Source: a virus
Taxonomy: Duplodnaviria > Heunggongvirae > Uroviricota > Caudoviricetes
IMG/VR virus record: IMGVR_UViG_2870474514_000003
Length of the DNA stretch: 46,798 nucleotides
Reading direction: 5' to 3' (one strand)
Shown here piece by piece: positions 39,001 through 42,000 of this stretch (positions within the stretch are counted from its first letter, which is position 1; each line of letters begins with the position of its first letter). A program made the position numbers.

Positions 39001-42000
39001 GCAAAATGTTTTATGTGAAACCGCCTGCGGGCGGTTTTGTCGTTTATGGAGCGTGAGGAATGGGTAAAGGCAGCAGTAAGGGGCATACCCCGCGCGAAGC
39101 GAAAGATAACCTGAAATCCACGCAGCTGCTGAGTGTGATTGATGCCATCAGCGAAGGGCCGGTTGAAGGTCCGGTGGATGGATTAAAAAGCGTGCTGCTG
39201 AACAGTACGCCGGTGCTGGACAGTGAGGGGAATACCAATATATCCGGCGTCACGGTGGTGTTCCGGGCCGGTGAGCAGGAGCAGACACCGCCGGAAGGTT
39301 TTGAATCCTCCGGCTCCGAGACTGTGCTGGGTACGGAAGTGAAATATGACACGCCGATCACCCGCACCATCACGTCGGCAAACATCGACCGTCTGCGCTT
39401 TACCTTCGGTGTGCAGGCACTGGTGGAAACCACCTCAAAGGGGGACAGGAATCCATCGGAAGTCCGCCTGCTGGTTCAGATACAGCGTAACGGTGGCTGG
39501 GTGACGGAAAAAGACATCACCATTAAGGGCAAAACCACCTCGCAGTATCTGGCCTCGGTGGTGGTGGATAACCTGCCGCCGCGCCCGTTTAATATCCGGA
39601 TGCGCAGGATGACGCCGGACAGCACCACAGACCAGCTGCAGAACAAAACGCTCTGGTCGTCATACACCGAAATCATCGATGTGAAACAGTGCTACCCGAA
39701 CACGGCACTGGTCGGCGTGCAGGTGGATTCGGAGCAGTTCGGCAGCCAGCAGGTGAGCCGTAATTATCATCTTCGCGGGCGCATTCTGCAGGTGCCGTCG
39801 AACTATAACCCGCAGACGCGACAATACAGCGGTATCTGGGACGGAACGTTAAAACCGGCATACAGCAACAACATGGCCTGGTGTCTGTGGGATATGCTGA
39901 CCCACCCGCGCTACGGCATGGGGAAACGTCTTGGTGCGGCAGATGTGGATAAATGGGCGCTGTATGTCATCGGCCAGTACTGCGACCAGTCGGTGCCGGA
40001 CGGCTTTGGCGGTACGGAGCCGCGCATCACCTGTAACGCTTACCTGACCACACAACGTAAGGCGTGGGATGTGCTCAGTGATTTCTGCTCGGCGATGCGC
40101 TGTATGCCGGTATGGAACGGGCAGACGCTGACGTTCGTGCAGGACCGGCCGTCGGATAAGGTGTGGACCTATAACCGCAGTAATGTGGTGATGCCGGATG
40201 ATGGCGCGCCGTTCCGCTACAGCTTCAGCGCCCTGAAGGACCGCCATAATGCCGTTGAGGTGAACTGGATTGACCCGAACAACGGCTGGGAGACGGCAAC
40301 AGAGCTTGTGGAGGACACGCAGGCCATTGCCCGTTACGGTCGTAACGTCACGAAGATGGATGCCTTTGGCTGTACCAGCCGGGGGCAGGCACACCGCGCC
40401 GGGCTGTGGCTGATTAAAACGGAACTGCTGGAAACGCAGACCGTGGACTTCAGCGTGGGTGCTGAAGGGCTTCGCCATGTACCGGGCGATGTCATTGAAA
40501 TCTGCGATGATGACTATGCCGGTATCAGCACCGGCGGGCGCGTGCTGGCGGTGAACAGCCAGACCCGGACGCTGACGCTCGACCGTGAAATCACGCTGCC
40601 ATCCTCCGGTACCACGCTGATAAGCCTGGTTGACGGAAGTGGCAATCCGGTCAGCGTGGAGGTCCAGTCCGTCACCGACGGCGTGAAGGTAAAAGTGAGC
40701 CGTGTTCCTGACGACGTTGCAGAATACAGCGTGTGGGGGCTGAAGTTGCCGACGTTGCGCCAGCGCCTGTTCCGCTGTGTGAGTATCCGTGAGAACGATG
40801 ACGGCACGTATGCCATCACTGCCGTGCAGCATGTACCGGAAAAAGAAGCCATCGTGGATAACGGGGCGCACTTTGACGGCGACCAGAGCGGCACGGTGAA
40901 TGGTGTCACGCCGCCAGCGGTGCAGCACCTGACTGCCGAAGTCACCGCAGACAGCGGGGAGTATCAGGTACTGGCCCGCTGGGACACGCCGAAGGTGGTG
41001 AAGGGCGTGAGCTTCCTGCTTCGCCTGACCGTGGCAGCGGATGACGGCAGTGAACTGCTGGTCAGCACGGCCCGGACGGCGGAAACCACATACCGCTTCA
41101 GGCAACTGGCGCTGGGGAACTACAGGCTGACAGTCCGGGCGGTAAATGCGTGGGGACAGCAGGGCGATCCGGCATCGGTATCGTTCCGGATTGCCGCACC
41201 GGCAGCGCCGTCACAGATTGAGCTGACGCCGGGCTATTTTCAGATAACTGCCACGCCGCATCTTGCGGTTTATGATCCGACGGTACAGTTTGAGTTCTGG
41301 TTCTCGGAAACGCGGATTACCGATATCAGGCAGGTTGAAACCACAGCCCGCTACCTTGGCACGGGGCTGTACTGGATAGCCGCCAGTATCAATATCAAAC
41401 CGGGCCATGATTATTACTTTTATATCCGCAGTGTGAACACCGTTGGCAAATCGGCATTCGTGGAGGCCGTCGGTCGGGCGAGCGATGATGCGGAAGGTTA
41501 CCTGGATTTTTTCAAAGGCAAGATAACCGAATCCCATCTCGGTAAAGAGCTGCTGGAAAAAGTAGATCTGACGGAGGATAACGCCAGCAGACTGGATGAG
41601 TTTTCGAAAGAGTGGAAGGATGCCAACGATAAATGGAATGCCATGTGGGCTGTCAAAATTGAGCAGACCAAAGACGGCAAACATTATTCGCGGGTATTGG
41701 CCTCAGTATGGAGGACACGGAGGAAGGCAAACTGAGCCAGTTTCTGGTTGCCGCTAACCGTATCGCGTTTATTGACCCGGCAAACGGGAATGAAACGCCG
41801 ATGTTTGTGGCGCAGGGCAACCAGATATTCATGAACGACGTGTTCCTGAAACGCCTGACGGCCCCCACCATTACCAGCGGTGGAAATCCACCGGCATTTT
41901 CCCTGACACCGGACGGAAAGCTGACTGCTAAAAATGCGGATATCAGTGGTAGTGTGAATGCGAACTCCGGGACGCTCAACAACGTCACGATTAATGAGAA

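Follow-up and report, generated by a model that had tools for sequence, protein, structure and literature searches.

The J gene of a lambdoid prophage in E. coli AR_0374, which encodes the tip attachment or host specificity protein, has lost a single base at codon 877 and is broken by this loss into two overlapping reading frames. The break lies upstream of the receptor-binding domain. Many independent assemblies show the identical deletion, which preceded the insertion of an IS10-type element into the tail assembly gene T. We consider it very likely that the loss of the G is genuine, that it originated in a single lineage and was inherited vertically with the prophage, and that it truncated J and presumably cost the phage its infectivity before T was hit as well.

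The window, that is, the whole stretch of 46,798 bases analysed here, corresponds over its full length and with 100% identity to positions 4220878-4267675 of the AR_0374 chromosome (NZ_CP027126.1). According to the RefSeq annotation it contains a lambdoid prophage with genes for an integrase, a LexA-type repressor, a Q antiterminator, lysis proteins, a terminase, a portal and a prohead protease/capsid fusion, followed by a tail operon in the order V, G, T, H, M, L, K, I, J, lom, stf, tfa. J is thus found after L, K and I and before lom/stf, the position of a gpJ-family gene. The features discussed below are listed in Table 1.

Table 1. Features of the J and T loci and of the IS10-type elements in the window
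Feature	Position	Strand	Details
IS10-type element ISVsa5 (second copy)	6091-7419	+	1329 bp; 9-bp target duplication AGCAAAGTA
Gene T (tail assembly)	31973-33640	+	Split by the IS into fragments 31973-32119 and 33440-33640; RefSeq 'incomplete; partial in the middle of a contig'
IS10-type element ISVsa5 in T	32119-33447	-	1329 bp; identified from annotation, ends and duplication
Gene J (tip attachment / host specificity protein)	39060-42457	+	3398 nt; pseudogene through the loss of one base; RefSeq CSC11_RS22365, 'frameshifted'
ORF1 (891 aa)	39060-41735	+	J residues 1-876 plus 15 out-of-frame residues; stop TGA at 41733-41735; hub domains, FNIII/Ig domains, alpha-helical AHS segment
Lesion site TAT TC GCG	41685-41692	+	G of the Val877 codon (GTC) absent between 41687 and 41688
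ORF2 (249 aa)	41708-42457	+	J residues 884-1132; most of the central straight fibre and the receptor-binding domain
Receptor-binding domain, A8/OmpC type	42083-42454	+	PF12421; J residues 1009-1132
Side tail fibre genes stf/tfa	43188-46798		Intact

The lesion can be read directly from the sequence. The codons run aaa cat tat, are interrupted by TC at 41688-41689, and continue as gcg ggt att ggc ctc agt atg gag; intact alleles have CATTATGTCGCGG where the window has CATTAT-TCGCGG. A sequence-only reading of the window had already pointed to these two bases standing in place of a codon and had proposed a 1-bp deletion, and a pairwise alignment bore this out. Strain 190 has an intact allele of 3399 nt (WP_047661854.1, annotated as 'phage attachment tail tip protein J'). 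When the 3398-nt J of the window was aligned with it, exactly one gap was found, the G between 41687 and 41688, with which the Val877 codon begins (GTC to TC); the only other differences were three synonymous SNPs near the 5' end, far upstream of the gap. Both overlapping frames described in that reading were present in the ORF list of the plus strand, where they share 28 nt. The J-like sequence that it had placed before the second start codon was also found, as the second frame is open from 41663 and its first ATG, at 41708, is Met884 of J. The expected length of 1140 codons for an intact J needs correction to 1132, because the sum of 891 and 249 includes 15 residues of ORF1 that are out of frame, while residues 877-883 are left out.

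With the G restored, J encodes 1132 residues and aligns over residues 1-1131 with lambda gpJ (PDB 8IYK chain J; 2324 bits, E = 0), and ORF1 and ORF2 are therefore not a chance pair of open frames. The restored protein shows the complete gpJ domain series, with all six Pfam families scoring above the gathering cut-off: FNIII-A_GpJ, Phage-tail_3, Ig_J, Ig_J_second, Phage_Tail_Tip and Ig_GpJ_C (PF24801, PF13550, PF24421, PF24489, PF09327 and PF12421). Judged by its sequence, domain content and gene position, the locus belongs to the gpJ family. However, its frame is not open, the G being absent at codon 877 and a stop following 15 codons on, and it is thus a J pseudogene. Two other genes in the window are annotated as 'frameshifted', a response-regulator receiver-domain gene outside the prophage (1721-3471) and a small hypothetical gene inside it (10199-10518).

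The position of the break determines what is lost. Phage_Tail_Tip, the tail-tip fibre domain, covers residues 846-972 and the receptor-binding Ig_GpJ_C covers residues 1009-1132, so that most of the former and all of the latter lie downstream of the lesion, in agreement with the suggestion in the sequence-only reading that J is deprived of its receptor-binding region. The C-terminal part of lambda gpJ consists of two FNIII domains, the AHS helical bundle (809-861), a trimeric beta-prism forming the central straight fibre, and the receptor-binding domain, and binding of the receptor is relayed up the central fibre to open the tail tip (PMC11101478). By analogy with this architecture, residue 877 is placed at the upper end of the central straight fibre. 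The 891-aa product would therefore retain the hub, FNIII domains and AHS, whereas nearly all of the fibre and the whole receptor-binding domain would be lost. The stranded domain also gives an indication of the former host receptor. The last 163 residues of ORF2 score 344 bits against A8 gpJ (PDB 9WCA, 'A8 gpJ 713') compared with 124 bits against the LamB-binding lambda protein, and residues 713-1132 of the restored J match A8 gpJ with E = 1e-276. The A8 C-terminus is a natural variant of gpJ that has served to redirect engineered lambda particles to OmpC, and its dependence on OmpC is described in PMC11338833. Because the receptor-binding domain of the window is nearly identical to that of A8 gpJ, the intact ancestor of the prophage probably used OmpC. 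The prophage family carrying this domain appears as a natural source of the A8/OmpC specificity.

Long-read assemblies err most often by single-base indels. The sequence-only reading had reserved the case of a sequencing error, in which the true J would be intact (with 1132 codons by the present count) and the absent G an artefact. The strain ET300 discussed below might seem to strengthen this reservation, since K and H of its prophage copy contain a 1-nt gap and an internal stop, respectively, which are possibly errors of this type. We searched an 80-nt query centred on the deletion junction against E. coli complete-genome records and against phage records. Five of the 2,234 matching E. coli records carried the junction exactly, whereas the other matches listed span 81 bases and thus keep the G. 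Besides AR_0374 itself, the carriers are 3985, from blood in Houston, MB165, from poultry in Cuba, and two strains from China, ET300 (frog) and W150 (human); the gene is flagged as 'frameshifted' by PGAP in all five. None of the 75 matching phage records contained the deletion junction at 99% identity or more, and the 15 phage matches listed, with lambda (J02459) among them, each span 81 bases.

The whole prophage was then compared among six copies, the five carriers and GN4741, in which this prophage occupies the same site and J is intact. All five carriers also share the site of integration, and each copy has private SNPs, which indicates that the carriers are independent isolates and assemblies. 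Of about two dozen variable positions nearly all were private to one copy, and the 1-nt gap at 41687 was the only variant common to all five carriers and absent from GN4741. Since the deletion is common to independent carriers with private SNPs, it is an inherited character of the lineage. The two other frameshifted genes of the window, at 1721-3471 and 10199-10518, are common to all six copies, including GN4741, and their lesions are for this reason older than that of J.

The exact 891-aa product was recorded on 31 contigs (NCBI, Logan, ENA), and seven of seven loci that were fetched hold the junction and the adjoining 249-aa ORF; they include short-read drafts with contigs of 37-74 kb, the Logan assembly of run SRR33018382 and an ENA metagenome scaffold. 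A common assembly error is hard to reconcile with these data. The five complete genomes that share the deletion come from different laboratories and have SNPs of their own, and the deletion recurs in short-read, raw-run and metagenome assemblies; the site (CATTATGTCGCGG) is not a homopolymer; and GN4741 and strain 190, whose local flanks are identical to those of the window, were assembled with the G present. The caveat of a sequencing error can accordingly be set aside, an artefact being extremely unlikely. The metagenome scaffold, ERZ28577276, is peculiar in that the same deletion is accompanied there by about 40 other SNPs in 6.3 kb, those falling in ORF1 being all synonymous. The defective allele may have been transferred by recombination to another prophage background; alternatively, the scaffold may represent a mixed-strain consensus.

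A genuine deletion could still leave J functional if the break were bypassed during expression. It may be proposed that a -1 ribosomal frameshift or transcriptional slippage in 41663-41735 yields a regulated full-length J. The two frames overlap by 73 nt in this interval, and a -1 shift anywhere within it would restore a nearly normal protein. Tail operons are moreover known to employ programmed frameshifting, as in G-T of the same operon (PMC3224144). Nevertheless, no zero-frame slippery heptamer of the form X_XXY_YYZ was found in or just before the 73-nt overlap, nor was there an A/T run for transcriptional slippage in 41663-41735. The 101 nt at 41690-41790 fold at -30.1 kcal/mol, compared with a mean of -29.6 kcal/mol for shuffled sequences (z = -0.15), so the downstream fold is ordinary and no stimulatory RNA structure is evident in this segment. 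The two-frame arrangement is likewise confined to one lineage (the 5 exact records out of 2,234) and is not conserved among homologues, including the 15 phage matches listed. With none of the three defining features of a programmed -1 site in place (heptamer, downstream structure and conservation), we give recoding next to no credence.

It is also conceivable that ORF1 and ORF2 are both translated and assemble non-covalently into a working tip that lacks only residues 877-883. The restart codon at 41708 is only 25 nt upstream of the ORF1 stop and thus within re-initiation range of terminating ribosomes; ORF2 begins seven residues past the break, is complete and undamaged in every copy examined, and is called as a separate gene by gene callers. 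However, the Shine-Dalgarno duplex before this ATG is weak, at -3.9 kcal/mol, compared with -6.0 to -9.3 kcal/mol for the starts of J, lom, stf and I, and because of this weak match ORF2 is probably translated poorly or not at all. Moreover, the break divides one Pfam domain, with positions 3-34 of the PF09327 profile in ORF1 and positions 41-138 in ORF2, and it coincides with the start of the intertwined trimeric beta-prism that passes the receptor signal mechanically up to the AHS (PMC11101478). The integrity of ORF2 is uninformative because the whole prophage shows almost no substitutions: none was found in 41708-42457 across the six copies, which is too little divergence to show relaxed selection on ORF2. 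In addition, the other junction-matching E. coli records listed, from about 2,200 that match, keep the base. A functional gene in two pieces is therefore very improbable. More broadly, some residual function of a split J could be imagined, with the 891-aa hub nucleating fibreless tails that adsorb through stf/tfa, or with the re-initiated 249-aa product docking non-covalently. If so, the prophage would have a two-piece tail tip or would make a domesticated, non-infectious particle kept by the host. This is the only reading with any novelty, but nothing in the analysis supports it, and we regard it as very improbable. The explanation we prefer remains a truncated, inactive J.

The second tail lesion reported in the sequence-only reading, an IS10 insertion in G/T, was confirmed as an IS10-type element that splits T and is flanked by a 9-bp target duplication, TGCGCAGTT, at 32110-32118 and 33448-33456. 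The element has a match to the DDE transposase family PF01609, is annotated as ISVsa5 and has the terminal inverted-repeat ends CTGATGAATCCCCTAATGA / CTGAGAGATCCCCTCAT, which assign it to IS10 (IS4 family). A second copy lies upstream in the prophage, and the two are identical over 1329 nt. Both insertions are private to AR_0374 and absent from the five other prophage copies; T is intact (WP_001161009.1) in 3985, MB165, ET300, W150 and GN4741. Since the J deletion is lineage-wide and IS10 is present only in AR_0374, the deletion came first and the insertions later. The two lesions had been taken together as evidence for a tail-defective prophage. Both are indeed present, and a tail defect is supported by the deletion in J, the loss of the receptor domain and the split of T, but the two differ in age. 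The inverted IS10 pair brackets about 24.7 kb of the prophage, from the integrase through G/T; it has the geometry of a composite Tn10-like unit and is a substrate for inversion or deletion. The AR_0374 genome has many other matches to the window, at 28 places.

In 3985, MB165 and W150, J is the only tail-gene lesion, and the only other pseudogene of the prophage is the small hypothetical gene with a frameshift, which GN4741 carries too although its J is intact. In the ET300 copy the tape measure gene H is interrupted by a stop codon (A>T; window-equivalent 35559) and K has a 1-nt deletion (window-equivalent 38000); these represent either further decay or errors of a long-read assembly. The canonical G-T slippery heptamer of lambda is GGGAAAG. 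It is absent from 31500-32130, and the end of gene G, at 31948-31964, reads CCGGAAAAGTCCTGA; the G-T frameshift site of this prophage, if there is one, therefore differs from that of lambda.

A 301-nt J query had three matching places in the AR_0374 genome, indicating that other J-like genes are present. These might complement the defect in trans or repair J by recombination. Four clustered changes are private to AR_0374, three in J (39239, 39242 and 39269, all synonymous) and one in I (38609). Across a 65-nt segment of J, AR_0374 carries the allele found most often in other E. coli J genes, with 1,634 records matching it at 99% identity or more. This pattern suggests a short gene-conversion patch from a paralogous J, one that would not have reached the frameshift 2.4 kb downstream.

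According to the mechanism that we propose, the G of the Val877 codon was lost once in an E. coli lineage and would then have been passed on vertically with the prophage. Translation from the J start would give 876 correct and 15 wrong residues before terminating. Particles made from this prophage alone would be expected neither to bind the receptor irreversibly nor to trigger the ejection of DNA; those of 3985, MB165 and W150, if tails form at all, would be without the central fibre and would thus fail in irreversible adsorption and ejection. In lambda, tail assembly is initiated by J and requires G/G-T (PMC3224144). The later insertion of IS10 in T would also remove the G-T tail assembly chaperone in AR_0374, so that, judging from lambda genetics, tail assembly itself should fail. 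Infectivity has thus presumably been lost in all carriers. For annotators, this means that the prophage alone should be considered unable to make infectious particles, with J and T broken in AR_0374 and J alone in its relatives. The locus further offers a small, clean example of the order of decay, in which a point mutation in the host-recognition gene was followed by IS insertions, and the lost domain is of the OmpC-using A8 type, which is of interest for engineered lambda delivery particles. Otherwise this is ordinary prophage decay: the RefSeq flag 'frameshifted' is already public, current understanding is not challenged, and the lesion matters little beyond bookkeeping.

We compared the locus with known systems. 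The closest is lambda gpJ (PDB 8IYK, 8XCJ), with which the restored 1132-aa protein is colinear over residues 1-1131 and shares the Pfam series and the place in the operon. The J of the window differs from it in the broken frame at codon 877 and in a receptor-binding domain unlike the LamB-binding one of lambda. In this last respect the window resembles A8 gpJ (PDB 9WCA/9WCB), to which 161 of the last 163 residues are identical. However, in the window the A8-type domain is severed from the body of J by the frameshift, whereas OmpC use is reported for an A8 chimera in PMC11338833.

Another parallel is the stf gene of lambda PaPa, the laboratory lambda, in which a base-level frameshift gives two ORFs and abolishes the side tail fibres. 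There too, a small mutation that breaks the frame of a tail-fibre gene leaves two ORFs in its place and costs the phage a structure for recognising the host. The difference is one of consequence: Stf is dispensable for infection in the laboratory, whereas the central fibre and receptor-binding domain of J are required for irreversible adsorption and DNA ejection. The loss of the side tail fibres from laboratory lambda is mentioned in PMC11101478 and PMC11338833.

Finally, the prophage can be compared with the decaying cryptic lambdoid prophages of E. coli, in which point lesions and IS insertions accumulate stepwise in the tail genes of an otherwise complete prophage. Here the steps are the J frameshift followed by IS10 in T in AR_0374, and the H stop and K frameshift in ET300. 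Compared with those prophages, the family in the window is at an early stage, J being the sole damaged tail gene in 3985, MB165 and W150.
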